IMG/VR virus record: IMGVR_UViG_3300011113_000787
Span: 47,269-111,268 of that record
Direction: 5' to 3' (one strand)
DNA from: a virus
Taxonomy: Duplodnaviria > Heunggongvirae > Uroviricota > Caudoviricetes
Length of the DNA: 64,000 bases
Within the stretch, counting starts at the first letter, position 1; every line of letters begins with the position of its first letter. Both the position numbers and the translations under genes were made by a program. Below, one piece after another: positions 1,813 through 63,508 of this stretch. The notes under the pieces are model-generated. The model worked only from the letters and a program-made list of their open reading frames with translations, was not told the origin of the DNA and did no database searches.

Positions 1813-2919
1813 TTATAAATTTGGTTTGAGTACTGTTAATACCTCAGGGTATTCTTTATCAAGAACGCCTTCATTTTTTCCTTCATAAGGAATATTCTGA
1901 AGTACGTATCTAATTGCATTTAAACCTGATACTCTTTTATCTTCTGCATCAATAATAACCCATGGGTGATTAAGTGTAGATGTTTTATCGAATAATTTTT
2001 CTTTAAACTCAGTGAATCTGTCCCACAAATCTTGCATTTTTGAATCATTGGGTGAATATTTCCAATATTTCAACGGAGATTGTTGTCTCATTTTGAATCT
2101 TCTCGCTTGTGTGTCTTTGTCTATTGAAAACCACAACTTAAAAAGATAATCACCTTCTTTTACTAAATCACTTTCGAAATCCTCTACATTTTCCATAAAG
2201 TCCTCATACTCTTCAGGTGAACCATACCCCATCACAGGTTCGATAAGACCTCTGTTATACCAACTTCTATCAAAAAGGTTAATCATTCCTGGTCTGATTT
2301 GTTTACGATATCTACCCCACCAATCTTTCCTATCTTCAGGTGTAGGTACTCCTAAGGCAATTACGTTATAATATCTTGGATTTAGATTATCAACAAATTT
2401 TTTAATCGTCGAACCCTTACCTGCAGAATCTCTTCCTTCGAAAACAATAATCACCGTCTTATTTGTTTTTTTCAACCACTCTTGGAGTTTGAGTAGTTCT
2501 ACTTGTAGTTCGTAAAGTTCTTTTCTAAAAACTTTCTTTGGCACAATTGATGGTTCCTCTATTTCGAATTCATAGTCTTCGCTTTCGGGTTCAGTACCAT
2601 AACCCGACCTTTCTCTATATTTTAAGGATGTAATTATTTTTCCCAAATATTCTTCAACGTTTTTTTTCTTATCACCTTTTTTGAGAAGTACTTTTCTGAG
2701 ACCTCTATTCATCATATCAAAATCGATAATTTGAGTTGTCGCAAAATGTGTGATGTCCATCAACATTTTTTCAATCTTTGGTGAGTACAGTTTGAGGAAT
2801 TCCAAAGCCTCTACAAATTTTTTCAAATTCGTATTCATACTTGGACCTTCAATCCCCTTTTCTTCTTTCAATATACCCATTACAGAACGGATACGACTTA
2901 ATTCATTGAGAACAGACAT
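1813..2919 (-). CDS. ppk2: polyphosphate kinase 2 (PPK2) family protein with ~130-aa N-terminal extension
   Basis: Motifs VIIVFEGRDSAGKGSTIKK (PPK2 Walker A), FDRSWYNRG, WFSIDKDTQARRF, PWVIIDAEDK match the PPK2 consensus along the whole C-terminal 240 aa. Confidence 0.8.
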   Translation of the reverse strand: MSVLNELSRIRSVMGILKEEKGIEGPSMNTNLKKFVEALEFLKLYSPKIEKMLMDITHFATTQIIDFDMMNRGLRKVLLKKGDKKKNVEEYLGKIITSLKYRERSGYGTEPESEDYEFEIEEPSIVPKKVFRKELYELQVELLKLQEWLKKTNKTVIIVFEGRDSAGKGSTIKKFVDNLNPRYYNVIALGVPTPEDRKDWWGRYRKQIRPGMINLFDRSWYNRGLIEPVMGYGSPEEYEDFMENVEDFESDLVKEGDYLFKLWFSIDKDTQARRFKMRQQSPLKYWKYSPNDSKMQDLWDRFTEFKEKLFDKTSTLNHPWVIIDAEDKRVSGLNAIRYVLQNIPYEGKNEGVLDKEYPEVLTVLKPNL

Positions 2920-3003
2920 GCTAACTTTTCTTTATAAATATTATTTTAATCGGTATTTCTATATTTATCTATACCAAGATACTAAATCAAAAAAATCAAT
3001 AAA

Positions 3004-3306
3004 ATGGCGACAAGAAAAACCGCATTAGACTCTGCTGTTTCGACAGTAAAACCACCAATCACATTTAAGGAATTCTCAAAAGACCCAGTTAAAGGTCTTC
3101 TATTTATTGTGTTAATCGCAATCGGATACCTTTATGTTGATATCAAACTATCAAACAAAGAAATCGTTAGTAAGCAAGATGCTAAAATCGAAGCTTTGGA
3201 AGGTAAGGTCACAGTACTTGTAGACCAACTTCGTAAATCAGATAGTACCTCCGCCTCATTGGCATCAAAAATTTCAGTTCTACAAGAACTGGGTAAAATA
3301 AAATAA
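3004..3306 (+). CDS. lysis-associated membrane protein (i-spanin-like or holin; 1 TM + coiled coil)
   Basis: Single TM (GLLFIVLIAIGYLYV) followed by a coiled-coil-like segment; immediately upstream of lipoprotein and endolysin. Confidence 0.4.
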   Translation: MATRKTALDSAVSTVKPPITFKEFSKDPVKGLLFIVLIAIGYLYVDIKLSNKEIVSKQDAKIEALEGKVTVLVDQLRKSDSTSASLASKISVLQELGKIK

Positions 3307-3307
3307 G

Positions 3308-3640
3308 ATGAAATACTCAATACTACTTCTATTAATAGTGTTGGGATGTACATCACCAACGGAAACTAAAATCGAAAATAATGAAACATATTCAGCAATT
3401 GATTCAATCATTGGTCAAAGTAAAAAAAACCTTGTTGGACTTGATTCAACAATTAAAAGAACTGATTCTACCATCACAGGAAAAGTAGAAAAAACAGTTA
3501 AACAAATCTCAACTTTAAAAGAAGAGAACACAAAATTAAAAAAAGAAAATGAAACTCTTAAAAGCAAGCTTGACGATGCTAATGATGTTGGTCAGCCTTT
3601 CAAGCTACTCCCAGTATCCAACGGTCAAGACAATAGGTAA
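3308..3640 (+). CDS. lipoprotein, o-spanin candidate
   Basis: Lipobox MKYSILLLLIVLGC-TSP; starts 2 nt after previous stop; coiled-coil KLKKENETLKSKL. Confidence 0.4.
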   Translation: MKYSILLLLIVLGCTSPTETKIENNETYSAIDSIIGQSKKNLVGLDSTIKRTDSTITGKVEKTVKQISTLKEENTKLKKENETLKSKLDDANDVGQPFKLLPVSNGQDNR

Positions 3641-3974
3641 AGATACTGTTGTTATTATGACTGTAAAACAAGGCGAAGACATTAACCAAAGATTTATTTT
3701 ACTTAATGATAGTATTAAAAAAGTTAATGTAAGCTTCGATAAATACATGTTAGAAAACGGGATGCGTTTACAAAAAGTCTATTCCGATTATAACATGGAA
3801 TTAAACAATCACAGACAAACTAGAGCGGAAGCGGATAGTATCAAAAATCTCTATCTTCTTAACAAAAAACTTTATATGAACGCCGAAGAAGACCATAGAA
3901 GGGAAGTTAGAAATTTATTTGGTTTCACACTAATATCGTTTTTTCTTACAATATTCGTTTCTTTTAGTAAATAA
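3549..3974 (+). CDS. membrane protein with C-terminal TM (holin candidate); start uncertain (could be Met at about 3658)
   Basis: C-terminal hydrophobic segment LFGFTLISFFLTIFVSF; overlaps previous ORF if long start is used. Confidence 0.3.
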   Translation: MKLLKASLTMLMMLVSLSSYSQYPTVKTIGKDTVVIMTVKQGEDINQRFILLNDSIKKVNVSFDKYMLENGMRLQKVYSDYNMELNNHRQTRAEADSIKNLYLLNKKLYMNAEEDHRREVRNLFGFTLISFFLTIFVSFSK

Positions 3975-17212: not shown

Positions 17213-17914
17213 TTACTCCAAATCCTGATGTAAAAATAAAATTCTATCGTTATCTGTAAGTTTTTCGGTTGTAAAAGAAAATGGTGAATAGTCAAACTTA
17301 TAAAAACAAGGTTTGAAAAATTCGTAAACTAAAACAGCAGACTTAAAATCATAAACATCCTGATAGGAAAAATGTCTTTCATTTATGAATCGATTATCTT
17401 CCAAAAGAGAACTTATTCTCGATATTTCATTTTCAGTTTTTGTAATAAAAGGGAGATTCAGTATGTCTTCTTCGAGATTTTCAAATCTTATATAAAAGTC
17501 GACATCAATAGTATCATAAGTCCATTTCTGAAAAAAATTGTTTTTATCATCATACCATGGACTTAGAAAAACGTGAGGACCATTGTGCCAAAAATTTTCA
17601 GAAACCCATTTGGTAAATTTTGATTTGTAATCTTTTGAGTTTCTATATATAGGTTTTTCCAGAATGAATTTCTGATAGCAGGCAAACACTCTATCATAAG
17701 GATTTCTAACATTGGCAACAATTTGGAAATCTAAAAAGTCCTCTTCAATATGATTTTCTTGTGAATGGGTATCATTACGAAAATTCACCAATTTGAATTT
17801 GTTTTTTTTCTTTTTGGTGAAAAAATGATAATTTTCTAAGATTTTTTTCGTGATTGAACTTGCGGTTCTTTCAGGTGCCAACCATATTACTTGGTTTTCA
17901 ATGGAAACATTCAT
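17213..17914 (-). CDS. sulfotransferase-like protein
   Basis: IWLAPERTASS (5'-PSB-like) and RNPYDRVFACY (3'-PB-like RNPxDR..S/C.Y) in correct order and spacing; tentative. Confidence 0.35.
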   Translation of the reverse strand: MNVSIENQVIWLAPERTASSITKKILENYHFFTKKKKNKFKLVNFRNDTHSQENHIEEDFLDFQIVANVRNPYDRVFACYQKFILEKPIYRNSKDYKSKFTKWVSENFWHNGPHVFLSPWYDDKNNFFQKWTYDTIDVDFYIRFENLEEDILNLPFITKTENEISRISSLLEDNRFINERHFSYQDVYDFKSAVLVYEFFKPCFYKFDYSPFSFTTEKLTDNDRILFLHQDLE

Positions 17915-28801: not shown

Positions 28802-29419
28802 TTAAAATTTAAAATTGAATATAGACCCGAAGCCTGTGTCTTTGGTTAAATCTTCCTCATCATTGTCTACATCATCCGACGGTTGTGCTGTGCCTATGTT
28901 TACTTTATTGAGATTTATATTACCTCCGCATTTGATAGTACCATCATCGTTAATAAGTTCTCTGATGTTATGGCCCGACTCAATCCCAATATGTAAGTGG
29001 TCGTATGAACTTCCTGGGAAATCCATAACATAACCTAAGAGTTGACCACACTCAATCTTGTCTCCTTTGTTTACCTGTGGGTCTTTCAAGTGTGTATAAT
29101 AAACATCAGGTAAACCCTCATCACTTTTCACTGTGAATCCTGCACCAAATAATTTCTTTCCGTTTGTTTTGATTACCTTAGGACCATAGTCTTTGAATGT
29201 TACTACAGTTCCTGGTGCAACTGCATAAACAGGGTCCCCTATATCTGCTTTAATATCCCAAGCATTGTTACTTTGCCATCCTGATTGTCCTGCGTGAGCT
29301 CCATCTCTTGGTATTTTGATGTCGTTATCTCCCATTATTTTATCTGAGGCGTTTGGGGCTTCATTAATTCCTGACTTAATCAACCTTAATAGTTGTGACT
29401 CTGTTAAAATGTACTTCAT
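28802..29419 (-). CDS. M23 (LytM-type) metallopeptidase with family N-terminal helix motif
   Basis: MKYILTESQLLRLIKSGINE N-terminus; HAGQSGWQ..D..IGDPVYAVAPGTV...YYTHL...GQLLGYV...HLHIGIE = M23 HxxxD / HxH blocks. Confidence 0.65.
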   Translation of the reverse strand: MKYILTESQLLRLIKSGINEAPNASDKIMGDNDIKIPRDGAHAGQSGWQSNNAWDIKADIGDPVYAVAPGTVVTFKDYGPKVIKTNGKKLFGAGFTVKSDEGLPDVYYTHLKDPQVNKGDKIECGQLLGYVMDFPGSSYDHLHIGIESGHNIRELINDDGTIKCGGNINLNKVNIGTAQPSDDVDNDEEDLTKDTGFGSIFNFKF

Positions 29420-30672: not shown

Positions 30673-31194
30673 TTATTTTGTTTCAGTTTTTTTCAGTTTG
30701 ATTTGGTTTCCCAAAATAGCCAATATTACACCTAAAACAATTGAAATCTGATTGTCCAAAAACCCACCTGCAATTTGAGGATATAATGTATCAATTAAAT
30801 AAGATATCGGTGCACCAAAAAGGGCAAGGTTTAAAAAACCAATTGATGCAAGAGTTCCGAATACGCCATTTTTGATTTTATCTTTAACACTAAGCTTTTC
30901 ATCATCTTCGGTCATTTCTAAAGAATTTTCCGAAGAAGTTGAATCAACTAAGTCATCAGCAATTGCTATTGCAGTCAATGGGTTAGTATTTGAACTTATT
31001 CCAATTGAACTTAGTCTATTTTGGACATTCGATAGTTCTTTAGGTGTTAACATGTCCAAGGCTTTATCTACCATTCTATTCAATTTTGGGGAATTAACGA
31101 TTTCAGATGCAAGTTCGAGTTGTTCTTGTTCTTTGATGACTCTTTTTACAAGTCTTGTTAAATCTGATTCAGTAAGTCTTATTATTCTACTCAT
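30673..31194 (-). CDS. family-B protein (RLTESDLTRLVKRVIKE) with C-terminal TM segments
   Basis: N-terminal motif; C-terminal hydrophobic helices. Confidence 0.45.
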   Translation of the reverse strand: MSRIIRLTESDLTRLVKRVIKEQEQLELASEIVNSPKLNRMVDKALDMLTPKELSNVQNRLSSIGISSNTNPLTAIAIADDLVDSTSSENSLEMTEDDEKLSVKDKIKNGVFGTLASIGFLNLALFGAPISYLIDTLYPQIAGGFLDNQISIVLGVILAILGNQIKLKKTETK

Positions 31195-31204
31195 AAAATA
31201 TTGA

Positions 31205-31492
31205 TTACATTCTATGTTTTATATACAAAATAACATCTCCGAGTCTATTCCAATCCTCGTCTTGAATAATATCTTTTAACCATGAAATAAGATAATCCTT
31301 TTTCTTCATCACTTCACCTCTCAGGTCACCAGAATAATCAGTAAGTCTTACATCTTCATCACCAGCTAAATCTTTTTGCAAATTACGTATTTGCTGAGTA
31401 CCATAACCGATTCTACGTTCGTCATCCTCTTTTATAATTCTCTTAACCAATTTTTGTAGGTCAGACTCGTTTAATTTCACAATTTTTGGCAT
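31205..31492 (-). CDS. family-B small protein (KLNESDLQKLVKRIIKE)
   Basis: N-terminal motif nearly identical to 30673 and 38698 proteins. Confidence 0.45.
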   Translation of the reverse strand: MPKIVKLNESDLQKLVKRIIKEDDERRIGYGTQQIRNLQKDLAGDEDVRLTDYSGDLRGEVMKKKDYLISWLKDIIQDEDWNRLGDVILYIKHRM

Positions 31493-31525: not shown

Positions 31526-31548
31526 AAAAAACCCTCCGAGTGGAGGGT
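31526..31548 (-). terminator. rho-independent terminator (minus strand)
   Basis: A6 + ACCCTCC gagt GGAGGGT. Confidence 0.55.
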
Positions 31549-31552
31549 TTAA

Positions 31553-31906
31553 TTAGTTTTGATAGGATTTGGGTGAAGGTAGGTCTGAATATTCACACCA
31601 TAACTCCTCACGTTTCTTTCTAAGGTCTTCTTTCACATCATCAGGAAAATATACTCCGTCAGATTCCATGTCTGCAATGGTCTTACTAACGGCCTTATAA
31701 AGGGTACGTTTTTCTTTTACTGGAATCTTCTCATCTTCAAATAACTTAGCCATCAAGTTGAAAAGGTAAACACGCGGCCCACCTTCCCTATGAATTTTGT
31801 AAGAGTTTTCATCAACACTACTAAGTTCTCTGTATACGACAACTCCGAACACAATGAACAAAGTGCTAATGATAGATGTAAGGATGAATATTTCTAAATT
31901 CTCCAT
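31553..31906 (-). CDS. membrane-anchored protein (117 aa)
   Basis: N-terminal TM IFILTSIISTLFIVFGVVVY. Confidence 0.4.
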   Translation of the reverse strand: MENLEIFILTSIISTLFIVFGVVVYRELSSVDENSYKIHREGGPRVYLFNLMAKLFEDEKIPVKEKRTLYKAVSKTIADMESDGVYFPDDVKEDLRKKREELWCEYSDLPSPKSYQN

Positions 31907-31909
31907 TTT

Positions 31910-32083
31910 TTATTTTCTTTTTGAATTGATAAAGTTGAGAAGTCCGAGGATTGTTGGTGGCCATAGACCAATAAAAATTGCTTTAAGTGGGTCACCATGA
32001 GATAGATAGATATATTCTGAGACGAAGATACATACCACACACAAAATTAAGATTCCGAGTTCGGAAATTGAGAATTTTTTCAT
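31910..32083 (-). CDS. small membrane protein (57 aa), not in ORF track
   Basis: ATG at 32083; two hydrophobic helices; stop TAA at 31910-31912. Confidence 0.3.
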   Translation of the reverse strand: MKKFSISELGILILCVVCIFVSEYIYLSHGDPLKAIFIGLWPPTILGLLNFINSKRK

Positions 32084-32190: not shown

Positions 32191-32364
32191 TTATTTTTTT
32201 TCTTGTAGAGCCTCAACTAATACCCAACCAAAAAACATAATTCCTATTGGGAGATTCAAAGATACTGCAAAAGAAACAGATAATCCAATTCCGATTATAG
32301 TTTTTATATAACGGAGTCCATCACTAATAATTCGTTTTGCCCAAAAGTTATAAAAGTTATTCAT
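32191..32364 (-). CDS. small membrane protein (57 aa), not in ORF track
   Basis: ATG at 32364; two hydrophobic helices; ends ...EALQEKK. Confidence 0.3.
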   Translation of the reverse strand: MNNFYNFWAKRIISDGLRYIKTIIGIGLSVSFAVSLNLPIGIMFFGWVLVEALQEKK

Positions 32365-32374
32365 AATTGCACAC

Positions 32375-33319
32375 TTATTTCAAATTAAGTAATACGTTTC
32401 CATTTGAACCTAGCACGGTGGTTGGAACATCTCCTTTCCACTTTTGAACTTTGAGATAGTCAATGTAAAGTGGTGTAAGATATTGTTGTTCTTTCCTAAC
32501 AGCTTCCGCTCTACCTGAGGCAGCGATTACAGCTTGTGCCGAATCACCCTTAGCTCTGGCAATCTTTTCAAATGCCTCAGCTTCCGCAACTGCTTTACGT
32601 TGCATTGCCGCTTGGGCTTCTTGTACGGCTTTAGTTTTTTCTTCAATAGCTTTGGTAATCGCTGGTGGAGGGGCAATGTTTGTTCTCAATTGAGACACAG
32701 TGAACCACTTACCAACACGCTTATTACATTCAACAATGATGGCAGATTCAAATTCAGCTCTATGATTAAAAATTGAATCAACTGTGAATAAGTTTGCAAC
32801 ATCATTAACTGATGAAACAATTGCATTTCTTAACCAACCTTGTTCAACCGTTTTAATATCAACACGCAAGTTTTGAAACATTTGGTCTACTGCGGTTGGG
32901 TTTAATGAATAGTTGAAACTTGGTTTAATAGTTACTTGGAATCCACCCTTAGTGATTATGGTATTCTCTTCATAATCAATGTGTTGTTGGTAAACAGGGA
33001 ATTCATAGTACTGCTGAGTAAATGAGTTATATAAAACCCATCCACGTTTGTATTCAACCTTTGCCATACCACGGCTGTCTCCAATATTATCAACAAGAAT
33101 TGCAACTTTACCTGAGTCTACTCTTTCAACTTCATAAGGGTTTAAAATTGCAATGGTGAAGGCCGCAACCAAAGTGAGAACCGATTTGATTACTTGAGAG
33201 GTGTTTGTTTTTCTGTCTCCCCATTTATCTACTTCACCCAAGTAGTTTTTCATGTTAAATACTCCGAGGAATAGTCCCATTATTCCGAATACCAAAAGGA
33301 ACGTGATTAGTCCAATCAT
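32375..33319 (-). CDS. SPFH / band-7 (stomatin-prohibitin-HflK/C-like) membrane protein
   Basis: N-terminal TM, central SPFH-like region, Ala/Glu-rich coiled coil (AQAAMQRKAVAEAEAFEKIARAKG) typical of the family. Confidence 0.55.
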   Translation of the reverse strand: MIGLITFLLVFGIMGLFLGVFNMKNYLGEVDKWGDRKTNTSQVIKSVLTLVAAFTIAILNPYEVERVDSGKVAILVDNIGDSRGMAKVEYKRGWVLYNSFTQQYYEFPVYQQHIDYEENTIITKGGFQVTIKPSFNYSLNPTAVDQMFQNLRVDIKTVEQGWLRNAIVSSVNDVANLFTVDSIFNHRAEFESAIIVECNKRVGKWFTVSQLRTNIAPPPAITKAIEEKTKAVQEAQAAMQRKAVAEAEAFEKIARAKGDSAQAVIAASGRAEAVRKEQQYLTPLYIDYLKVQKWKGDVPTTVLGSNGNVLLNLK

Positions 33320-33573
33320 AATTTTTCTTTTTTATTGTTTTTTGATTTGTTTTCCAAAGTTGAGAAAATTTCTTGATAAAGTCCAATTGATATGACCATT
33401 ACCAAAGCACTTATGAGTAAAACTCCAATGAATTGAGCGTTCCTCAAGAATCCATATACACCGACTGCTGCAACAATCCATATGAAAATCGTGATAAGAA
33501 CGGCTTTGAATTTGTTTTCCATTTGATTTTTTTTATTTAACCAAAGAATAAAAAAAAAATTCTGAACAAACAA
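33316..33573 (-). CDS. small 2-TM membrane protein, NfeD-like partner candidate
   Basis: Stop overlaps SPFH start (ATGA); two hydrophobic helices; SPFH genes are typically paired with a small membrane partner. Confidence 0.35.
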   Translation of the reverse strand: MFVQNFFFILWLNKKNQMENKFKAVLITIFIWIVAAVGVYGFLRNAQFIGVLLISALVMVISIGLYQEIFSTLENKSKNNKKEKL

Positions 33574-33590
33574 AATTAGACGACCACTTT

Positions 33591-33770
33591 TTATTCCACA
33601 TCATTTATTTTATGAATTCCTATATTTCCCCCATGTTCATCCCTTTCAAGTTTAATATTATAGTCCATCATTCGTTTCAAAAAATCATCAAGTTTTTCTG
33701 GTTTAATTCCATACATCTTGGCAAGTTCCACATGATACTCAACATTAAAATTATCACCAAACTCTTTCAT
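33591..33770 (-). CDS. hypothetical small protein (59 aa), not in ORF track
   Basis: ATG 33770 to TAA 33591; fills gap between flanking genes. Confidence 0.3.
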   Translation of the reverse strand: MKEFGDNFNVEYHVELAKMYGIKPEKLDDFLKRMMDYNIKLERDEHGGNIGIHKINDVE

Positions 33771-33771
33771 A

Positions 33772-33957
33772 TTAATTTGTTAAATGTATCCCTTTAGCTC
33801 CACCCATTGCGGAACGAATCAGATGGATACGATATATTTCTTTGTAGTTCTCCATCGCGATTTCTTCTTCTTTAGTTAAAGGTGGACCTGTAGGAATCTT
33901 CCGAGTTTCAATTCGGATTAATTCAACAGGATATGAATTATTTTCATTCATATCCAA
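33772..33957 (-). CDS. hypothetical small protein (61 aa)
   Basis: ORF. Confidence 0.3.
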   Translation of the reverse strand: MDMNENNSYPVELIRIETRKIPTGPPLTKEEEIAMENYKEIYRIHLIRSAMGGAKGIHLTN

Positions 33958-33983
33958 AAAATAATGAAAAGAAATTAAAAAAC

Positions 33984-34010
33984 AAAAAAGGGTCTCACGG
34001 GACCCTTTTT
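33984..34010. terminator. bidirectional rho-independent terminator
   Basis: AAAAAA GGGTC tcacg GGACCC TTTTT. Confidence 0.55.
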
Positions 34011-34013
34011 CAT

Positions 34014-34826
34014 TTATATCTTATTTCCACAAGATGGACAGAACTTATAATTCTTTTTGACTTTAACACCACATTCCGTGCAGTATTGTCTTATTTCTTC
34101 AACGGTGGTATTTTTTGTTGAAATTGGTAAAATTTTATACTCAATAACATTTGTGGTATAGTATTCAAAGTTCTGATATGAATTTGTAAAAGTTTGGTTG
34201 GACTTTTCACCCTTTTCAACTCTACCTGTATCAATAGAATTTTTTGATTTCAGGTTTCTTGGTTTCCCGCTCAATAAAGTGTTGGATGTATCAAATTTAC
34301 TTCTAATATTTGGACCTGTAGGAGTGGTGTTGGAATAAAAACTTGTAGAGGTGTTAGACGCACCCATACTTGTTGTTACAAACATATTTCCTCCCATATA
34401 AGGTGTTCCCGTGTTTATTGTGCTCCAACCAGTGTTCCAACTACCGTTTGTAAGATGGATAGGATTAAATGATGGTGTTTGTTCATCATAAAACTCAATT
34501 CTCACATCTCCGTTCAAATCAATTGCACGTTTGTTTTCTGCAGTGTTTGCAACTTGATATACCGAAAACTTAAATTTATTTTGGGTATCCAAAAATCTTT
34601 CCAAAAATATTCTCTGACCTGGTTTTATTACAATACCACTTTGTGATATATAAAAACCATCAAGTTTGATTTTAACAAGAACCGATTTTTGTTTTGGATT
34701 GTAGAGTTCTAACTCAAAATTATCACCGTCGTTTAAGAAAACATTATGTCCCTTATAGATTTTTAGACGGGACTTCTTTTTGGTGATGTGCGCTGTGGGA
34801 TTACCCACTTGTGTTGTGTAATTCAT
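34014..34826 (-). CDS. hypothetical protein (270 aa) with C-terminal zinc ribbon
   Basis: C-terminus CTECGVKVKKNYKFCPSCGNKI (CxxC..CxxC). Confidence 0.5.
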   Translation of the reverse strand: MNYTTQVGNPTAHITKKKSRLKIYKGHNVFLNDGDNFELELYNPKQKSVLVKIKLDGFYISQSGIVIKPGQRIFLERFLDTQNKFKFSVYQVANTAENKRAIDLNGDVRIEFYDEQTPSFNPIHLTNGSWNTGWSTINTGTPYMGGNMFVTTSMGASNTSTSFYSNTTPTGPNIRSKFDTSNTLLSGKPRNLKSKNSIDTGRVEKGEKSNQTFTNSYQNFEYYTTNVIEYKILPISTKNTTVEEIRQYCTECGVKVKKNYKFCPSCGNKI

Positions 34827-44162: not shown

Positions 44163-44837
44163 TCATTTTTTCTTTTTCACACAGTTCGGATATCTTTTAC
44201 CAAACATAGTTTTCATGCCCTTTTGAGTGTATCCTTTCCAGCATCTCTCTTTGAGTTCACCCTCGGTCTGTTCCATCTTTTTCTCACCTCCAGGTCTGAT
44301 AACAATTATCTGACCAACATATAGGTTTTGTGGCGTTATTGGAGTTTCATAAAAATCAAACCAACATCTTCTGAAGTCGTACTTACTCACAACTCTCATC
44401 TCTTCTAAGTAAGGGTCTAAGATAAATAAGTTTTCATCATTATACCCTATGACTACTGATGAATGTCCCTCGGGTGGGTCACCACAGAACCAATCGACAA
44501 TCACAGGAACGTTGGCATCAATCAAACGAACAACTTCTTCGATTGTTGAGTTGTTTTTCATATAAACTTTGAAACCTAAAGACTCAGCTGCACAAGCCAT
44601 GTCTTCACTCTTACATCCTAATTCATATGTGTGGTCACAAATTTCAGCAATATCTTTCTCACTCAACATTGTACCATAGTATCCGAAAACCATTCTTAGT
44701 GAAGCAGGTCCGCAAGTTGAATCATCTGATTGTAGAAAATGAGGAACATCCAAAATCTTTGTTGGAGTTTGGTTAGTTTCCTCAATTATCAGAGAAACCA
44801 ATTCGATAAGTTGTGTTTCAGTTAATCTACGTATCAT
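44163..44837 (-). CDS. C39-like papain-fold cysteine peptidase with family N-terminal helix
   Basis: MIRRLTETQLIELVSLIIEE N-terminus; FLQSDDSTCGPASLRMVFGYYG (Q..CG.ASL.M) and GHSSVVIGY...DP blocks as in peptidase C39. Confidence 0.55.
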   Translation of the reverse strand: MIRRLTETQLIELVSLIIEETNQTPTKILDVPHFLQSDDSTCGPASLRMVFGYYGTMLSEKDIAEICDHTYELGCKSEDMACAAESLGFKVYMKNNSTIEEVVRLIDANVPVIVDWFCGDPPEGHSSVVIGYNDENLFILDPYLEEMRVVSKYDFRRCWFDFYETPITPQNLYVGQIIVIRPGGEKKMEQTEGELKERCWKGYTQKGMKTMFGKRYPNCVKKKK

Positions 44838-47109: not shown

Positions 47110-47476
47110 CTTTATCTAATTTAGGTTTTCCGTGTGGTTTTGGTTTTCCGTTTTCATCAAGTAATACAAACACAATCTTGTCTATTCTAACAATAGATTG
47201 TTTTGTAATTTTATTCCTAACGTCACACGCTATCGTAATTGAACTCGTACCCACTTTAACCATATCCATCCCGAACTCTATGATATCACCAAGAACTGCG
47301 GTTGATACAAAGTTAATCTCAGACATCGCTTTTGTTACAATGTTCGGACTACCGAGTTGGCAGATTGCAAATATCGCAGCCTCTTCATCAATCCATTTTA
47401 GGACCTGTCCTCCAAACAAAGTTCTTCTTGGATTTAGGTCACCTGGCTTTACCAATTTTCTTGTTCTATATTTCAT
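47096..47476 (-). CDS. hotdog-fold acyl-CoA thioesterase-like protein
   Basis: LVKPGDLNPRRTLFGGQVLKWIDEEAAIFA resembles the 4HBT/YciA thioesterase N-terminal block; inserted between umuD-like and umuC. Confidence 0.45.
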   Translation of the reverse strand: MKYRTRKLVKPGDLNPRRTLFGGQVLKWIDEEAAIFAICQLGSPNIVTKAMSEINFVSTAVLGDIIEFGMDMVKVGTSSITIACDVRNKITKQSIVRIDKIVFVLLDENGKPKPHGKPKLDKDEVQ

Positions 47477-49510: not shown

Positions 49511-50626
49511 TTAATTCTCTAAGTCAAGTTGCTTAACCAAATTAAGTGCTTGAGCAATAATTTGATGCATATCATAATAAACATATGTTGCAAGTCTTCC
49601 ACCAAAATAATAGTTTGGTAAACTCTCGGTCATTTTTTTGTATTGTTCGTACACCTCAGTATTTTTATCATCTCTGATTGGATAGTAAGGTTCGTTATTT
49701 CCGTTGTAATCAACAGGATATTCGTGACTTATGATTGTACCTTTTTGGCCTTGATGGTCGAACCATTTGTGTTCTAAAATTCTTGTGAACTTAGTTTCAC
49801 GGTCTGTGTAATTTACTACTGGTACTCCTTGGAAGTTGTCGATGGGTAAAACTTGAGTTTCCCAATCCAAACTTCTGTATTCTAATTGACCGTGTTCGTA
49901 GTTAAAAAATTTATCAATTGGTCCCGTGTAAATTACTTTGTTAGCCAAACCATCGAAATACTTTTTATTATCGAAGTAATCCACACCAAGTTCCACATCA
50001 GAACTCTCTAACATTTTTTCGAATATTTGAGTATAACCTCCAATCGGCATACCTGTGTACTTGTCGTTGAAATAATTACTATCCCAAGTAAACCTCACAG
50101 GTAGTCTTTTAATTATTGATGGTGGAAGTTCTTCACAGGTTTTGTTCCATTGTTTTTCAGTATAACCCTTAATCAACCTTTCATAAATCTCTTCTCCGAC
50201 CATAGACTTAGCTTGCTCTTCGAGATTAGAGATTTTTCCTTTATACTTAACCTTTTCAAGTTTTTCTTTTGCTTGTTCAGGTTCATTAACATCCCATAGT
50301 TGATTGAAGGTCCACATGTTGAAGGGTAAGGTATACATATCTCCCTTATAATTTGCAATAACATTGTGTGTATATTGCTTAAATTCAGCGAACTGATTCA
50401 CATAATCCCATATGTTCTTGTCGTTGGTATGAAAAATGTGAGCACCATATCTATGTACGTGTATACCGTTAACATTTTCTGTATAACAATTACCACCAAT
50501 CACTTTTCTTTTATCTATTACAAGACATTTAAATCCTTTCTTGGTTAACTCGTAAGCACAAACCGAACCGAAAGGACCTGCCCCTACAATAAGATAATCA
50601 TACTTTGGTTTTTCTAATAATATCAT
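49511..50626 (-). CDS. glf: UDP-galactopyranose mutase
   Basis: YDYLIVGAGPFGSV FAD-binding Rossmann motif; HRYGAHIFHT and overall length match Glf. Confidence 0.8.
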   Translation of the reverse strand: MILLEKPKYDYLIVGAGPFGSVCAYELTKKGFKCLVIDKRKVIGGNCYTENVNGIHVHRYGAHIFHTNDKNIWDYVNQFAEFKQYTHNVIANYKGDMYTLPFNMWTFNQLWDVNEPEQAKEKLEKVKYKGKISNLEEQAKSMVGEEIYERLIKGYTEKQWNKTCEELPPSIIKRLPVRFTWDSNYFNDKYTGMPIGGYTQIFEKMLESSDVELGVDYFDNKKYFDGLANKVIYTGPIDKFFNYEHGQLEYRSLDWETQVLPIDNFQGVPVVNYTDRETKFTRILEHKWFDHQGQKGTIISHEYPVDYNGNNEPYYPIRDDKNTEVYEQYKKMTESLPNYYFGGRLATYVYYDMHQIIAQALNLVKQLDLEN

Positions 50627-51777
50627 TTGAAATCAAATGTAAAACTTTCACTATCGATGAAGTGTTCCCCCATCTTATTGGTTATCTTTTCTCTAAATTC
50701 GTTTAAGAAATTGCTCGTGTTGAGATAACATCTATCTTCAATTAAGAAAGCTAAATCAGGGAAAGGATTTGTTCTCTCAGGTTTAGCCATCAAATCGATA
50801 GTTTCCAAAACCTTATCAAACATTCCAAGACGTTCATAATAAAAAGCCAAATACATAAAATGTTCATTTCTTCTTAATGAGAACTGTCCTGCTAACATGT
50901 AAGTTTCCTCAGCCTTTTGATGGTCACCAATAAACTCATAAGCCCATCCCATTACAATCAGTCCGAAATAAGCCATTTCGTCGCTATACTTAGCAGTCTT
51001 GGACTCATTCCACTTATGTGTAAGTTCTAAGAATCTTTCGTAATACCAAATAGACCTTCTTGCATATTCTTCTGAGTGTTTTCTACCAAAAGGTAATTCA
51101 CTTGAATTACCGTAGCAGTCCGCATAACTTTTAGCAATATACCAAAGGTGGTAATAATCTTCATTAACTTTGTCTCCAACGACTTTATCAATTTCAAGTT
51201 CCAAAGCATCTCTAAGAAACTTTCTTGGTGCTAACCATGTGTTACCATCTTGAGAAACCAAATGTCTAAACCCATAAGGCATTGAAAGTCTCTGAAACTC
51301 TTCTCCAACTTCAGGAAGATGGATTGTTTCGTGTCTTTTATCGTGAGCGAAATAGAATGGTAATTTAGCATTCCAAAACCAACATCTGAAATATCTCATC
51401 CCACCTGTGTCTGCAGTAATGTTATAACTCTGAACTGATGTGTCGTTTAAAATTGACCAATCAAAGTCTTCATCTACCTGAAGTCTTTCATCGGCATCCA
51501 TTCTGAGTATCCAATCACAACCATGGTCCGCCTGTAAACACTTTTGGAGTGTGTGGTCACGGTTCCAACCTGGGAAATTCCACTCAACCTGATAGGTGAA
51601 TCCAGGTATGTTCTTTTCCTTAAAGAAGTTATCAATCTTTTGTTGAGTATCGTCATTTCCGTTACATTGAATAACATAGTAGTCAACATAAGGTGCAACA
51701 GATTCTAACATTCTTGTAATGGTGGCAGATTCGTTACCGACCATTGAGTTTACACAAATTTTTGTAGTTTTATTCAT
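50623..51777 (-). CDS. glycosyltransferase (GT2-like N-terminal domain) with TPR-like C-terminal region
   Basis: ICVNSMVGNESATITRMLESV...RMDADERL (DxD) ; overlaps glf start by 4 nt. Confidence 0.5.
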   Translation of the reverse strand: MNKTTKICVNSMVGNESATITRMLESVAPYVDYYVIQCNGNDDTQQKIDNFFKEKNIPGFTYQVEWNFPGWNRDHTLQKCLQADHGCDWILRMDADERLQVDEDFDWSILNDTSVQSYNITADTGGMRYFRCWFWNAKLPFYFAHDKRHETIHLPEVGEEFQRLSMPYGFRHLVSQDGNTWLAPRKFLRDALELEIDKVVGDKVNEDYYHLWYIAKSYADCYGNSSELPFGRKHSEEYARRSIWYYERFLELTHKWNESKTAKYSDEMAYFGLIVMGWAYEFIGDHQKAEETYMLAGQFSLRRNEHFMYLAFYYERLGMFDKVLETIDLMAKPERTNPFPDLAFLIEDRCYLNTSNFLNEFREKITNKMGEHFIDSESFTFDFK

Positions 51778-53017
51778 AAATGTAATTCATTACTCCCTCT
51801 TCTTCGAAGAATTTCTTTACGGGAGTGTGTTTTTGAAATTTATGGGAATGTCCCAACTCTTCGTCCCAATACCAATCATCATATCCGAGTTCTTTAATTC
51901 TTTCATGGATTCTTGTATCGTAATGGTCTCTTATTAATCTAGCTCTTCTGTTGATATCAATTGCGTTGTTATCAACTGTACTATTTCTGTTGTTGTATTG
52001 TAAGTATAACATTTTTTTCACATGAATAAATCTTGTATGAAGAAATGACCTTACAATAATTTCAAAATCATCAGCCACAGGAGTGGACTTATTATGACCA
52101 CCGATATCGTGGTAGAAGTTTCTTTCCCACATCCTTATGTGATTTGGCATTGATATGTTAAATCTGATGGTAAGAGGGTTGATATCAGGGTACCAATGTG
52201 CTAAGTACCTTTTACCATCCGCAACCACCCAACTATGTCCAGCATAACCAAAATCAAAGTAGTTATCGGGTCTTGCATACCAATTACCACTCCAATCGTG
52301 GTCGTAAGATTTCATTTCACCATCTTCATAAACCTCACAACTGTCGGTATATAAAAACTTACCATCAGGGTATTTCTGAATCGCACTCAAACATGTTTCC
52401 AAACAGTTTGAAATCAAAGCGTCGTCATGGTCTAATTCACAAACCCAATCTCCATCACAAAGCATTGCTGCTCTATGTTTAGACAAACCCACATTACCAC
52501 CAGTAAGAGGGTAAATTTTATGTATTTTTACTCTAAAGTCTTGGTTTGAAATTAGTTGGAGTTTTTTCCAAGTATCATCATCAGGGGAGTCATCAACAAC
52601 TACCCATTCCCAATCTCTAAAGGTCTGATTTTTGAGACTTTCATACGTTCTGAATATTCTATCACCCGTTTTATATGTTGGAGTGAATATGGAGAACTTA
52701 GGACGACGGTATTTACAATTTCTAAAAACCGATTGGCATACAATTATGTTAGCCAAAACGTTATCCCCCAAAACCTCGTCAAGGTGAACGTGAATATCGT
52801 GTAATTTTGAATCATTAATTTCTATAGGTTCAACGATAGAAACAATTAAATCGGGTTCATATTTCGAATAGTCTGAGAATACATCGTCAGTATAGGGTAA
52901 TGATATAAGTTGAACCTCATCTTCCAAACCTTCCTCAAAATAAACATCCGACTGTAAAATGTGGTGACCTTGAAAATGCCATCCATAAACTATTGCACTA
53001 GGTTTCTTTGTCTTCAT
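51770..53017 (-). CDS. family 2 glycosyltransferase
   Basis: FSIFTPTYKTGDRIFRTYESLKNQTFRDWEWVVVDDSPDD and ELDHDD (DxD). Confidence 0.55.
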   Translation of the reverse strand: MKTKKPSAIVYGWHFQGHHILQSDVYFEEGLEDEVQLISLPYTDDVFSDYSKYEPDLIVSIVEPIEINDSKLHDIHVHLDEVLGDNVLANIIVCQSVFRNCKYRRPKFSIFTPTYKTGDRIFRTYESLKNQTFRDWEWVVVDDSPDDDTWKKLQLISNQDFRVKIHKIYPLTGGNVGLSKHRAAMLCDGDWVCELDHDDALISNCLETCLSAIQKYPDGKFLYTDSCEVYEDGEMKSYDHDWSGNWYARPDNYFDFGYAGHSWVVADGKRYLAHWYPDINPLTIRFNISMPNHIRMWERNFYHDIGGHNKSTPVADDFEIIVRSFLHTRFIHVKKMLYLQYNNRNSTVDNNAIDINRRARLIRDHYDTRIHERIKELGYDDWYWDEELGHSHKFQKHTPVKKFFEEEGVMNYIYE

Positions 53018-59777: not shown

Positions 59778-60980
59778 TTAGTTTCCTTTTGTTGGGAATC
59801 TTGTCCAACCGTTGGTCCAAGTTGGTTTGGATAACAAATCCATTTCCCCTTTGGTGTATTGTTTTTCTGAATTACCTTCGGATAGTGCCTTGGTTTTCAT
59901 GTCTGTTGCTGTAAACACTGTAGAGGTAGATTTAAAATTGAGAAGTGGGTCAAATGCCTGAATCTCATTATTCAAAAATTTAGAGACCCTGTCCTTGTAA
60001 GACTGAGCAGTTTCATTACTTTCAATTGAAAATGAACCCTTTTGATATCCAAGTATTTTTGAGTTTGTTATTGTGAATTGAGTTGCTCTTCTCCATCTCA
60101 AACCTAGATTATGGTTTGATAAAGAAGTGTTGCTAAATGGTCCAATCAAAATCATTTGGTTTAACTTTGGATGTGTAAATGGTTGTGCAGATGAACCTGT
60201 TCCATCATTATCACATTCAACACCATTTCCTGCATCTCCGTTATCAACAAATAAAGGGTCTCTTTTGGAAACACCGTAATTAAGTTCACCTGTGTAACCA
60301 AAGTCAAAGTCATAATCATCATCTGCTGTTGCGAATGCATAAAGATATCTTGGTGATACAGTTCCACCGAAGAATTCAAATGCGTCGTCGTTAGCATAAA
60401 TTGTTTGGACATATTGGATAATTGTTCCTCTGCCAACTGCACCTAACGTCAAAGCATTTATCTCAGAATTTGGAAGTGCTGCAATTCCAGCGTACTCAAT
60501 TCTAACATACTTGATTATACCACTGTTGTCTTCATCATTTGTTCCACCATAAGGTCTCCCGATTCCACCTTCAATTGTTGGTTCAGAACTTCTGTTTGTT
60601 TTTGCTCTACCAAGGATTACAATCCCACCCCAATCACCAGGACTTCTTTGTCCTTCAGGTTGACCTGATGTGAAAACAATTGGTCTATCAGGTGTGCCTT
60701 CAGCAATTATCTTTGCACCCCTCTCAATACATAGTGCACCTTTTTCTGCAACATCTGATTTGATTACAGTTCCTGGTTGGATTATTAATGAAGCCCCATC
60801 TGTAACATACACATAGCCCTTCAATGTCCATACTTTGTCTGAAGTCAAAGTTGTTGTTGCGTTAATGTTACCTGATAGAGTAGTTGATGATGGTACGTTT
60901 ATTGGTCCCTCATCACCTCCAAGGTCTTTAGTACAACTGATAAATGATAATAAAGTCAGAGACAATAATAATTTTTTCAT
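59778..60980 (-). CDS. surface lipoprotein (400 aa), partner of the TonB-dependent receptor
   Basis: Lipobox LLSFISC; overlaps upstream TBDR stop (ATGA). Confidence 0.5.
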   Translation of the reverse strand: MKKLLLSLTLLSFISCTKDLGGDEGPINVPSSTTLSGNINATTTLTSDKVWTLKGYVYVTDGASLIIQPGTVIKSDVAEKGALCIERGAKIIAEGTPDRPIVFTSGQPEGQRSPGDWGGIVILGRAKTNRSSEPTIEGGIGRPYGGTNDEDNSGIIKYVRIEYAGIAALPNSEINALTLGAVGRGTIIQYVQTIYANDDAFEFFGGTVSPRYLYAFATADDDYDFDFGYTGELNYGVSKRDPLFVDNGDAGNGVECDNDGTGSSAQPFTHPKLNQMILIGPFSNTSLSNHNLGLRWRRATQFTITNSKILGYQKGSFSIESNETAQSYKDRVSKFLNNEIQAFDPLLNFKSTSTVFTATDMKTKALSEGNSEKQYTKGEMDLLSKPTWTNGWTRFPTKGN

Positions 60981-63508
60981 AGATTTAAATTAATTGATAG
61001 AGAGATTGATTGTTCGTTGTTTGTTTTAATCAAATCCCTATTGTTTATTTTTTGATAAAATCTTGTTGGTTGTGCTAGCAAATCCCCAACAGATAATTTT
61101 ATTTCTCCTTTTTTTAATTTTCTTAATATAACCATGTCTACAACATCTCTTGAGTTTTCGAAGATATCAGGATATCCTTGAAATCCAACTGCAGATATTC
61201 TTTCTCCGATTCTATTATATGTTATTGAAACAGAGTTGTTGTTCTTGTGGAAATTCAATCCACCATTGATAATATAATTTGATTGTCCTTGTAATTGTCT
61301 TTTGATTTGACCGACATTCACATTTGAATTGATAAGTGCTGAGTTTGTGTAAACATCAAGCCAGTCGCTCATCTTTTTTCTAAATTCAAATTCAATTCCA
61401 ATTACAGATGCTTGATTTGGATTTGTATATGTTAGAAGAAGATTTGATGGTACTGAACCGTCAGCAACTATTTGTTCAATTGGTCTGATAAAGTTTTTTG
61501 AGAAAACTCCAATTGAAAAGTTTTCACCAAGTTTTGGATAATGTTCCCACTTCAAATCGAAGTTGTAGATATCAGTTTTCTCAAGGTTTGGATTACCTAA
61601 AAGTTGTGCGTTTCTAACGAAGTCATAGTATGCAAAGTTTGCTACTTCTCTGAACTCAGGTCTTGCAAGTGTCTTAGACATCGAGAATCTAAACTTATCT
61701 TTCTCCAAGTTATATGATAGGTTAACTGATGGTAAGAAGTCCAAGTATTCTCTGTTAACTCTCACTCTTGTACCACTGAAATCTGATGTGTTAACTTGAA
61801 ATACATTGTACTCTGTTCTAAGACCACCATTAAATTTCCATTTGTTCCATGTCTTATCGTATTGGACATAACCATTCGAAAGGTCGAAGTCTGCGGAATA
61901 TCTATCAGCGTTGTTTGTGATTTCGTTCAACAGGTCTGCCGCATCATATCTGAATATTCTTGCTTGAAAGTTTCTGAACTTTTTTAGGTGTCCTACACCT
62001 ACTTTAAAGTCACCAAAGTCTTTGTCTACCGAACCATTAAATTGGTTTTCATCCATCACAGACCAGAATCTATAAGTGTCTCTCCAAGCAACTGAGAAGT
62101 TATCATTTGTTCCCAATGACTTTGTTATTGGATTAACTCTATAATCAGGTTGGTCTCTTAACATCAAGTTATAACCCAAGATGAAATCCCATGTCTTTAT
62201 CTTACCTTCGAATTGAGAGTTGAAGATTGTTTTAACCACCGTGTTTGATGAATTACTTTTAACATATTGAACGTTATCATAATTCTCACCGTTTCTTTGT
62301 AGATAAGAACGTTCAACCTGATGATTCAAAATTGACTTCCAAGAGAATTTATTATCACCAATATAAGTTAGGTTGAATAATCCACTCACAGAACTGTTAT
62401 CAGTAAACAAAGTGTCTCTGTATTTGTAAGCAAGCTCTGTTGAACTTTGATAGTCCAATCTATCTGTGTAGTTAAGACCAAATGATTTTCTTGCGTTTGA
62501 GCTAAACAAATAATTCCACTTGGAATTTTTCAAACCAAATGAAAGACCTCCATTAAAGTTTGGCGTGGATAGGAAGTTACGTTCATTTCCATCAACCATT
62601 AGTTTTGTGTATGCCCTTCTGTCTCCGATTGTTCCAACTCTGAATTTGTATGTTGACGGAAACTTGGTGGGGAAGGTTATATTTTCCACCAATCTGAAAT
62701 CTCTTAAACTCGAAACCGTTCCATAACTTGTTCCGAGTGATAAGGACAAAAAATTGTCGTTTACCTCCTTTGTTGTAACTTGAACAACTCCACCAGCGAA
62801 GTCACCAGGAAGTGATGGAGAAGCCGATTTCAATACCATCACGTTATCTATAAGACCCGCTGGTATGATATCAAAAGAAAATGACCTTCTATCTGGTTCT
62901 GTCGAAGGTAAAATTGTTTTATTTAAAAATGAAAGGTTATATCTATCAGAAAGTCCTCTTACCAAAACAAACTTATCGTTTTGGATTGTAACCCCATTAA
63001 CCCTTTTCAATACGTCACCAACTGTTCTATCAGGAGTCTTCTCAATGTATTCAATCGATACTCCATCAGATACAACATTATTGTTTCTTATTGTTCTGAT
63101 AACAGAAACTTCAGTAACTTTCTGTGGGACACTCCTTACTACAACCTCATTTAATTGAGTTGTATTGTCTTCAAATACGATATCATAATTCATATCACCC
63201 TGAACCAATAAGTCCTGTAGATACTCCTTATATCCAACGTAGGTTGCTTTAATCTGGTACTTACCCTCGGCTAAAGTGATTGAGTAAATTCCGTCCTTGT
63301 CTGATAATGTGGTGAAGACCTCACCTTTTTCGTTCTTAAAAGTAATGTGCGAAAAATAGATTGTCTCAGTCTTTGATTTTGTTACCCCTTTGATGTTCAC
63401 TTGAGAGAACAAAAAGTTTGGTAAAATTAGAAATAAAAATAAAAGTTGTTTCATGTCCACAATAATTATGAACTCAACTTTACATGCCCATAGTTTTTGT
63501 ATTAACAA
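60977..63508 (-). CDS. TonB-dependent outer-membrane receptor (CarboxypepD_reg-like N-domain + plug + barrel)
   Basis: Signal peptide ...FLFSQ; VNIKGVTKSK...YQIKATYVGYKEY carboxypeptidase-regulatory-like domain; plug block DNVMVLKSASPSLPGDFAGGVVQVTTK. Confidence 0.65.
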   Translation of the reverse strand: MLIQKLWACKVEFIIIVDMKQLLFLFLILPNFLFSQVNIKGVTKSKTETIYFSHITFKNEKGEVFTTLSDKDGIYSITLAEGKYQIKATYVGYKEYLQDLLVQGDMNYDIVFEDNTTQLNEVVVRSVPQKVTEVSVIRTIRNNNVVSDGVSIEYIEKTPDRTVGDVLKRVNGVTIQNDKFVLVRGLSDRYNLSFLNKTILPSTEPDRRSFSFDIIPAGLIDNVMVLKSASPSLPGDFAGGVVQVTTKEVNDNFLSLSLGTSYGTVSSLRDFRLVENITFPTKFPSTYKFRVGTIGDRRAYTKLMVDGNERNFLSTPNFNGGLSFGLKNSKWNYLFSSNARKSFGLNYTDRLDYQSSTELAYKYRDTLFTDNSSVSGLFNLTYIGDNKFSWKSILNHQVERSYLQRNGENYDNVQYVKSNSSNTVVKTIFNSQFEGKIKTWDFILGYNLMLRDQPDYRVNPITKSLGTNDNFSVAWRDTYRFWSVMDENQFNGSVDKDFGDFKVGVGHLKKFRNFQARIFRYDAADLLNEITNNADRYSADFDLSNGYVQYDKTWNKWKFNGGLRTEYNVFQVNTSDFSGTRVRVNREYLDFLPSVNLSYNLEKDKFRFSMSKTLARPEFREVANFAYYDFVRNAQLLGNPNLEKTDIYNFDLKWEHYPKLGENFSIGVFSKNFIRPIEQIVADGSVPSNLLLTYTNPNQASVIGIEFEFRKKMSDWLDVYTNSALINSNVNVGQIKRQLQGQSNYIINGGLNFHKNNNSVSITYNRIGERISAVGFQGYPDIFENSRDVVDMVILRKLKKGEIKLSVGDLLAQPTRFYQKINNRDLIKTNNEQSISLSINLNL

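Follow-up and report, generated by a model that had tools for sequence, protein, structure and literature searches.

A phage SPFH (band-7) protein gene overlapped by an upstream gene for a small two-helix membrane protein, compared with the paired SPFH genes of other phages

The SPFH (band-7) proteins form cages that are structurally well understood, and their bacterial clients are mostly unknown. In the HflK/HflC-FtsH system of Escherichia coli, HflK/C is a hetero-oligomer of two paralogues with the SPFH domain in the periplasm, and the SPFH domains of QmcA and of flotillin face the cytoplasm. In E. coli QmcA-YbbJ and in the Bacillus subtilis pairs NfeD2-FloT and YqeZ-FloA, the SPFH protein stands beside a small protein with several transmembrane (TM) segments that is expected under the cage. 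Phages have SPFH proteins as well: the family is catalogued as phrog_200, the pair gp19 and gp20 of phage N4 is present in reference annotations, and in Kayvirus the SPFH protein MbpS and the holin-like MbpV are encoded between lysK and tgl, where MbpS may aid the secretion of Tgl (PMC7150955). A 2026 paper states that the role of SPFH proteins in phages 'remains unclear' (PMC13239085), and the literature searched yielded genome-annotation remarks only, with no experiment on phage SPFH function and no account of such a pair as a conserved module. Here we analyse a pair of this kind in a stretch of 64,000 nucleotides (nt) of a virus record (IMG/VR IMGVR_UViG_3300011113_000787, positions 47,269 to 111,268), hereafter the window, in which the gene for a 314-amino-acid (aa) SPFH protein is overlapped by an upstream gene for a 68-aa protein with two TM helices. 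We hold it moderately probable that the two form a phage membrane module, a periplasm-facing, membrane-anchored SPFH scaffold made together with a hairpin partner.

The SPFH gene lies at 32375-33319 on the minus strand, as do all the features of the pair given below. A first-pass annotation, made from the letters of the window, had called its product a band-7 protein, and this identity was borne out by a match to Band_7 (PF01145) of 75.3 bits (E=8.2e-21; cut-off 23.6 bits) that spans residues 66-248 (32576-33124) and positions 2-175 of the 176 in the profile. The protein also belongs to phrog_200 ('lipoprotein'), matched at E=1.7e-46 and 160 bits with residues 7-309 on profile positions 53-353 of 379. 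It starts with its own pair of hydrophobic helices, at residues 2-20 and 41-59 by hydropathy, and these form an N-terminal membrane anchor (33143-33316) that is also seen in the alignment and in the AlphaFold2 (AF2) model. A long C-terminal helix at residues 219-293 (32441-32665), the coiled-coil wall element of SPFH cages according to alignment, AF2 and Foldseek, is followed by a conserved K-W-x-G-x-x-P motif. With anchor, SPFH domain, coiled-coil helix and C-terminal motif, this is a genuine full-length SPFH scaffold.

The AF2 model, built on an alignment of 40 sequences, has helices at residues 4-18 and 40-59, an SPFH region at 62-216 that is beta-rich and then alpha/beta, and a single long helix at 219-293. 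When it was compared with the PDB by Foldseek, SPFH cage protomers filled the top 30 places, with alignments of about 240-310 columns. They included human prohibitin (8rrh, E=6e-11), HflK/C (7vhq, 7wi3, 9cz2), stomatin, erlin1/2, flotillin and the QmcA-YbbJ complex (8z5g, with E=3e-9 to 8z5g_A), major vault protein ranking after them. PDB searches by sequence, run with the SPFH protein alone and with the 40-sequence profile, gave no match, so that the phrog_200-type family of the window protein is distant from all solved members, and it is the fold comparison of a predicted model only that links it to them. By analogy with these homologues of solved structure, the protein probably assembles into a multimeric ring or cage.

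The small gene (33316-33522) was delimited by hydropathy, gene calls and homologues. The mechanical open reading frame (ORF) reaches a TTG at 33573 (33316-33573, 85 aa), but the true start is almost certainly the ATG at 33522, because 68 aa is the length given by gene calls made independently on three other assemblies and shared by all three database homologues. With a mean hydropathy of about 2.5, two segments of the 68-aa protein (residues 8-26 and 31-49) are strongly hydrophobic; a four-residue loop, RNAQ, joins them, and the chain stops 19 residues past the second of them in a Lys-rich C-terminal tail. Since K/R residues lie at both ends, two at the N-terminus and five in the tail, the hairpin is predicted to have an N-in/C-in topology. 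Its TGA overlaps the ATG of the SPFH gene in a 4-nt stop/start ATGA (33316-33319; junction AAA TTA TGA / ATG ATT GG), which is consistent with translational coupling of the two genes. The coupled partner proposed at the outset stands, then, as far as its two TM helices and the overlap go; on the coding strand it is upstream of the SPFH gene and not downstream as had been supposed. For the window itself the result is mostly confirmatory, with the domain call upheld and the gene order corrected. No Pfam family was found above threshold for the 68-aa protein, NfeD (PF01957) gave no match at E<=1, and none of the holin families in Pfam or PHROGs reached threshold.

The window-type pair recurs as a unit. 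In 17 other contigs (L168-L172) a small gene with 88-90% identity precedes an SPFH gene of 98% identity, the two sharing the 4-nt overlap seen in the window and also in L074-L076. The flanks of the pair are rearranged in those 17 contigs: upstream of it stands a homologue of a gene that in the window is found 1.2 kb downstream, and for the downstream neighbours the window has no counterpart. Because the overlap is kept while the flanking genes differ, the pairing is not a matter of chance adjacency. Homologues of the 68-aa protein in a 5.8-billion-protein database were only three, and frame, length and both TM helices are kept at 65-99% identity. A weak homologue of the small protein was also noticed about 1 kb downstream of the SPFH gene in locus L005.

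Similarity searches extended the SPFH family to phages of many hosts. Relatives were detected by tblastn in 452 phage records, the hosts including Pseudomonas, Staphylococcus, Klebsiella, Bacillus, Erwinia, Escherichia, Burkholderia, Caulobacter and Prevotella, and relatives of the window protein lie on IMG/VR viral contigs; the best match in a cultured phage was Flavobacterium phage FL-1, at 45% identity. The phage-like context attributed to the locus was thus confirmed. A search for near-identical DNA with the 12 kb around the locus found no match in the phage records, which means that there is no cultured close relative among them.

We sampled 72 close and 58 more distant SPFH loci from IMG/VR, of which 96 were non-redundant and evaluable. 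A conserved family of 58-83-aa proteins with two TM helices was encoded upstream of the SPFH gene in 78 of these 96 loci, another small TM ORF in 3 and none in 15. The partner gene overlapped the SPFH start by 4-20 nt in 51 of the 78 loci and was within 30 nt of it in another 21. BLAST single-linkage joined 67 of the 80 unique upstream proteins, including that of the crAss-like IAS virus, and a profile search added the remaining sub-groups and the N4-like proteins. An upstream two-TM hairpin gene is, therefore, the usual arrangement for phage SPFH genes. The partner family amounts to at least 371 clusters in the 5.8-billion-protein database and has no Pfam model; its profile matched nothing relevant in the PDB, including the YbbJ chain of 8z5g, and some members had sub-threshold matches to holin families. 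Two members (P0132 and P0143) are labelled by the JGI pipeline 'membrane protein implicated in regulation of membrane protease activity', which we take to be the COG name used for NfeD-type proteins; the NfeD relationship behind this label was not reproduced by Pfam or PDB profile searches.

Within this family, the proteins of a pair are inherited together. The distance matrices of SPFH proteins and partners are correlated (Spearman 0.64, Mantel p=0.001). In close pairs, divergence of the partner runs about three times faster than that of the SPFH protein (0.32 versus 0.10). The best-conserved columns of the partner are those of the loop between the helices, with Ser at 3.5 bits, N/D at 2.8 and R/K and V/I at about 2.5, and this loop is predicted from the sequence to face the SPFH domain.

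The N4 pair offers a close comparison. In N4, gp19 ('membrane protein', phrog_1130) and gp20 ('lipoprotein', phrog_200) overlap by 8 nt and follow the RNAPII genes and gp18, and the family pair is also found in Klebsiella phage Tribble, IAS virus, Agrobacterium phage OLIVR5 and Burkholderia phage phi1026b. The pairs of N4 and of N4-like, crAss-like, rV5-like (PVP-SE1) and Pootjesviridae (OLIVR5) phages have the same gene order and stop/start overlap as the window, a 58-83-aa hairpin with a basic tail and a phrog_200 SPFH protein predicted to be periplasmic, and the alignment of the SPFH proteins of N4 type with that of the window extends from the anchor to the C-terminal KWxGxxP motif. They differ in two respects, which are local peculiarities of the window pair: its SPFH protein is anchored by a two-helix hairpin and not by a lipobox signal peptide, and its small partner, which lacks the loop motif, is not recognisably homologous to theirs.

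Variations on the arrangement were also recorded. In Salmonella phage PVP-SE1 (L163, 575-1809) a 54-aa soluble ORF is inserted between partner and SPFH genes, and in L117 and L118 a 78-aa soluble ORF has the same position; not every pair, therefore, is coupled. The partner hairpin of L051 and L053 is fused to a C-terminal extension of 90-110 aa. In the phages of Firmicutes Mammaliicoccus phi6255 and Bacillus BillyBob, a small gene for a one-TM protein occupies the partner position; in phi6255, a relative of the Kayvirus arrangement, this 101-aa one-TM gene abuts the SPFH gene. The Kayvirus pair itself resembles that of the window in that MbpS, a phage SPFH protein, has beside it the small membrane protein MbpV with its charged tail, and differs in its Gram-positive host, in a one-TM partner with a long charged helix and in its location inside the lysis region lysK...tgl.

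Bacterial chromosomes also carry the pair. Close SPFH relatives are present in metagenome-assembled genomes of Chitinophagaceae, and in two long chromosomal contigs of this family (L175 and L176) partner and SPFH genes stand alone between ordinary genes. The L176 pair (2822-3809) is flanked by a histidine kinase gene and queA, and the L175 pair (2793-3885) has a gene with a CarboxypepD_reg domain on its upstream flank. The SPFH gene of L176 is split into two ORFs, either as a frameshift pseudogene or through a nanopore assembly error. From these chromosomal copies, the host of the window phage is probably a member of the Bacteroidota, and the two genes of the pair appear to be exchanged together between phages and their hosts.

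The anchor of the SPFH protein bears on its orientation. Of the non-redundant SPFH relatives, all 66 that are 40% or more identical to the window protein have a TM hairpin, and 28 of the 34 below that value have a signal peptide with a lipobox Cys. In the alignment, the second helix of the window protein and the residues 'NPYEVERVDSG' stand opposite the signal peptide and lipobox of the N4-like homologues, where N4 gp20 reads '...LIIALSLTSC' followed directly by 'YDRVEPGNVG' and phage Tribble '...LTGC' followed by 'YERVEPG'. The annotated coding sequence of IAS virus starts at 'MSSCGYERVDAG', with its Cys aligned to the N4-like lipobox. A lipobox is absent from the window protein, whose N-terminal 65 residues have no Cys and whose TM hairpin fills that position. 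With a lipoprotein signal peptide the SPFH domain ends up on the outer side of the cytoplasmic membrane, so a helix standing in for that peptide must cross the membrane in the inside-to-outside direction; the five K/R residues in the loop between the two anchor helices fit a cytoplasmic loop and an N-out first helix. We infer that the SPFH and coiled-coil part of the window protein is most likely periplasmic.

As regards the lipoprotein form, the mature N-terminus of N4 gp20 (L159, 2757-3593) after the lipobox would be Cys-Tyr-Asp. By the +2 rule of E. coli, a Tyr at +2 would route gp20 to the outer membrane, in contrast with its two-TM partner, which must sit in the inner membrane.

In the module that we propose, the window SPFH protein would be anchored in the host cytoplasmic membrane by its N-terminal hairpin, with the SPFH domain and coiled coil on the periplasmic face, and, by analogy with HflK/C, prohibitin, stomatin, erlin, flotillin and QmcA, it would assemble into a ring or cage around a patch of membrane. 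Within this patch the 68-aa hairpin, made from the same mRNA, would serve as co-anchor or client, its termini facing the cytoplasm and its short loop facing the SPFH domain. It might contact the membrane-proximal face of the SPFH protein through the loop, or pack its helices against the SPFH anchor.

Several observations weigh against this reading. The window small protein scored only E=0.013 (13 bits) with the hidden Markov model (HMM) of the partner family in a background of 3220 ORFs, just above the TM background; with an iterated profile, which draws in N4 gp19 (E=5e-10) and the Tribble partner at about 1e-10, it dropped to E=0.4-4, that is, to background, and phrog_1130 was not matched by it. 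The family loop motif [VI]-S-[RK]-x-x-[ND]-[TG] is missing, RNAQ being in its place. Moreover, when the loci are grouped by SPFH identity to the window, the canonical partner accompanies all 48 at 50-65% and 29 of the 32 below 40%, but 1 of the 7 at 40-50%, which form the FL-1 group, and none of the 9 at 65% or more; 7 of the 9 closest have no small TM ORF upstream, and neither has Flavobacterium phage FL-1. The partner is, therefore, not obligatory for phage SPFH genes, and the 68-aa protein could be an unrelated occupant of the partner slot. To this must be added that the AF2 model is of moderate confidence only (mean pLDDT 66, pTM 0.40), and that periplasmic orientation, oligomerisation and contact between SPFH protein and hairpin are all steps that we infer.

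The proposal that the window small protein is a homologue of the partner family was accordingly not supported by BLAST, the family HMM or the iterated profile. The protein conforms to the family in position and architecture, with the same size, two TM helices, basic C-terminal tail and an overlap with the gene that follows. The absence of the partner at 65% identity and above indicates that the sub-lineage of the window has either lost the canonical partner or altered it so far that it is no longer recognisable. Both fast divergence of an orthologue and replacement by an analogue are possible origins of the 68-aa protein, and divergence beyond detection may be entertained because the partner evolves about three times faster than the SPFH protein.

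What the cage might hold is a further question. We tentatively suggest that it corrals an inner-membrane machine with an extracytoplasmic domain, with the quality-control protease FtsH as the leading candidate. FtsH was preferred because AAA+ membrane proteases are recurrent clients of SPFH cages (HflK/C-FtsH, prohibitin-m-AAA), and because it is universal, which would explain a module found across very different hosts and lifestyles. Corralling FtsH would shield the many small phage membrane proteins, five of them in this operon, and the membrane of the infected cell. HflK/HflC-FtsH offers a plausible model for a periplasmic cage enclosing an inner-membrane protease: as proposed for the window protein, HflK and HflC have an N-terminal anchor and a periplasmic SPFH domain with coiled coil, and the structures (7vhq, 7wi3, 9cz2) are closely similar over about 290 columns. 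The link of the window pair to FtsH, drawn by this analogy, is nonetheless weak and counts among the points against our reading.

A different role, unlikely in our judgement, would be that of a superinfection-exclusion or envelope-barrier moron, in which periplasmic SPFH protein and hairpin block the DNA entry of a second phage, or serve as a defence encoded by prophage or host. The PHROGs category of N4 gp19, 'moron, auxiliary metabolic gene and host takeover', accommodates such a role, as do the homologues in temperate phages (phi1026b and an Stx2-converting phage) and the solitary two-gene inserts in Chitinophagaceae chromosomes. Exclusion genes, however, are usually lineage-specific and fast-evolving, and the spread of the SPFH family over the phages of Gram-negative and Gram-positive hosts points instead to a universal host target. 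The position of gp19-gp20 in the early/middle region of N4, right after a gp18 annotated as 'similar to P22 gp17 superinfection exclusion', also agrees with exclusion, but that label is annotation only and gp18 has no TM segment. Neither protein of the pair matches a PADLOC model; indeed, none of six proteins of the locus matched the defence models of PADLOC-DB 2.0 at E<=0.01, and the association with defence islands mentioned in the first-pass annotation found no support.

It is less probable still that the pair times lysis, the hairpin acting as holin or antiholin and the SPFH protein clustering or restraining it, or aiding the export of a lytic enzyme. The complete lysis cassette of N4, gp60-gp63, includes neither gp19 nor gp20 (bioRxiv 10.1101/2025.11.12.688109), no lytic enzyme is encoded beside the window pair (the nearest candidates are an M23 peptidase 3 kb and an endolysin-like ORF 11 kb away), and the Chitinophagaceae copies have no lysis genes around them. 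In favour of this role, the Kayvirus genes lie between lysK and tgl, and the small protein resembles a class-II holin in its 68 aa, two TM segments, N-in/C-in topology and charged C-terminal tail; some members of the partner family also match holin families below threshold. The class-II features are not specific to holins, though, and no holin HMM reached threshold for the window protein.

We consider very unlikely a pair homologous to HflK/C or to NfeD-stomatin that tunes FtsH for the lysis-lysogeny decision, in the manner of lambda CII/CIII, a reading that goes back to the first-pass annotation. The fold is that of HflK/C and QmcA, the probable periplasmic orientation matches HflK/C, and an SPFH gene beside a gene for a small membrane protein resembles the nfeD-SPFH operons, with the JGI label of two partner-family members pointing the same way. 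However, the window SPFH protein had no NCBIfam match at E<=1e-3, the HflK and HflC models included, and even the N4 and crAss homologues reached only about 20 bits on the hflC equivalog, against a cut-off of 134 bits. There is, moreover, one SPFH gene and not two paralogues, a tblastn search of the window with a 98% identical SPFH protein matching only 32417-33319; identity to HflK and HflC is 14-17%, the standards of TIGR01932/01933 type are not reached, and orthology to HflK/HflC was rejected. Of the NfeD-like arrangement what stands is the gene-order analogy, adjacent and co-oriented. NfeD proteins carry a C-terminal OB-fold (PF01957), which the small protein lacks and which could not be housed in 68 aa, so that NfeD identity was rejected; Pfam and PDB profile searches found no sequence relationship between NfeD-type and phage partners, and YbbJ was not among the PDB matches. 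QmcA-YbbJ shares the SPFH cage protomer fold with the window protein, and differs in that the SPFH domains of QmcA and flotillin face the cytoplasm whereas that of the window is probably periplasmic. Strictly lytic phages (N4, crAss-like phages, PVP-SE1) commonly carry the module, which makes control of the lambda CII type unlikely as a general role, and lysogeny control is not a likely purpose. The labels NfeD, HflK/C and defence island should be dropped for the window pair.

That the small ORF is spurious or an unrelated neighbour and its overlap functionally meaningless is hardly credible: 4-nt overlaps are frequent in compact phage genomes, the closest IMG/VR SPFH relatives lack the ORF, and homology to the canonical partner was not detected and database homologues are only three, but the ORF is called independently on other assemblies with frame, length and TM helices kept, its overlap persists in 17 contigs while both flanks change, and a protein of the same size and architecture fills the slot in about 80% of the relatives.

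The genes surrounding the pair in this part of the window are all on the minus strand, and the pair lies in a putative transcription unit. Terminator-like hairpins on this strand bracket seven genes, five of which encode membrane proteins; one of the hairpins, with a T-run (33980-34015), is the likely upstream boundary, and another, with a 9-bp stem, five GC pairs and a T-run (31529-31550), follows the 117-aa gene at the likely end. Two small soluble ORFs of 59 and 61 aa without a Pfam family (33591-33957) head the unit, and after the hairpin and SPFH genes come three membrane-protein genes of 57, 57 and 117 aa. The first of them (32191-32364), an accessory gene that the L168-type relatives lack, starts 10 nt past the SPFH stop; the other two are at 31553-32083. 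The accessory genes of the unit matched no Pfam or PHROG family. A scan for sigma-70 promoters gave 9 sites against 10.5 expected, and the probable Bacteroidota host uses a different promoter type. No integrase or repressor turned up among those ORFs of the window that were scanned, no search aimed at these genes being made.

Other genes of the window are given here as side observations. Two candidate cell-wall hydrolases, neither of which adjoins the pair, are a Peptidase_M23 protein (28802-29419, minus strand), downstream of the SPFH gene, and the endolysin-like ORF (44163-44837, minus strand; phrog_10051, E=2e-8), upstream of it. Two adjacent ORFs at 30673-31194 and 31205-31492 (both minus strand) share an N-terminal motif, 'L(T/N)ESDL..LVKR.IKE'; the 173-aa protein of this couple ends in two TM helices, and in L168 a 55% identical homologue of it lies upstream of the SPFH pair and not downstream as in the window. 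Just upstream of the terminator that opens the operon, a 270-aa protein (34014-34826, minus strand) has a C-terminal zinc ribbon (PF13240) as its only recognisable part. A cluster for glycan modification (49511-53017, minus strand) comprises the UDP-galactopyranose mutase gene glf (phrog_9677, E=4e-135; 57% identity with the glf found at the termini of Streptococcus suis phage records), an unassigned 384-aa ORF and a GtrB-like glycosyltransferase, and a sulfotransferase-like ORF is located at 17213-17914. An 843-aa protein with CarboxypepD_reg, TonB Plug and outer-membrane beta-barrel domains (60977-63508, minus strand), similar to TonB-dependent receptors, and a polyphosphate kinase 2 (PPK2; 1813-2919, minus strand; E=9e-70) are unusual cargo in phage DNA, which could reflect either auxiliary functions of a large phage or a stretch of host chromosome within the window.

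Beyond the window, these results turn a vague annotation, a 'lipoprotein' beside a 'membrane protein', into a defined two-component module whose members diverge together and which is testable in N4 gp19-gp20. They concern the SPFH proteins of at least 452 sequenced phages, including the model or medically relevant N4, crAss-like phages and Kayvirus. On a speculative note, the pair may be an ancient and portable two-gene device, a virus-made, periplasm-facing cage that captures or shields a universal inner-membrane machine such as FtsH; its range would take in N4-like, crAss-like, rV5-like, Pootjesviridae, temperate Burkholderia and Bacteroidota phages, with one-TM versions in phages of Firmicutes. 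If this were true, it would represent a general mechanism of host takeover so far undescribed, and the window would stand for a lineage in which the partner has been replaced or has diverged.

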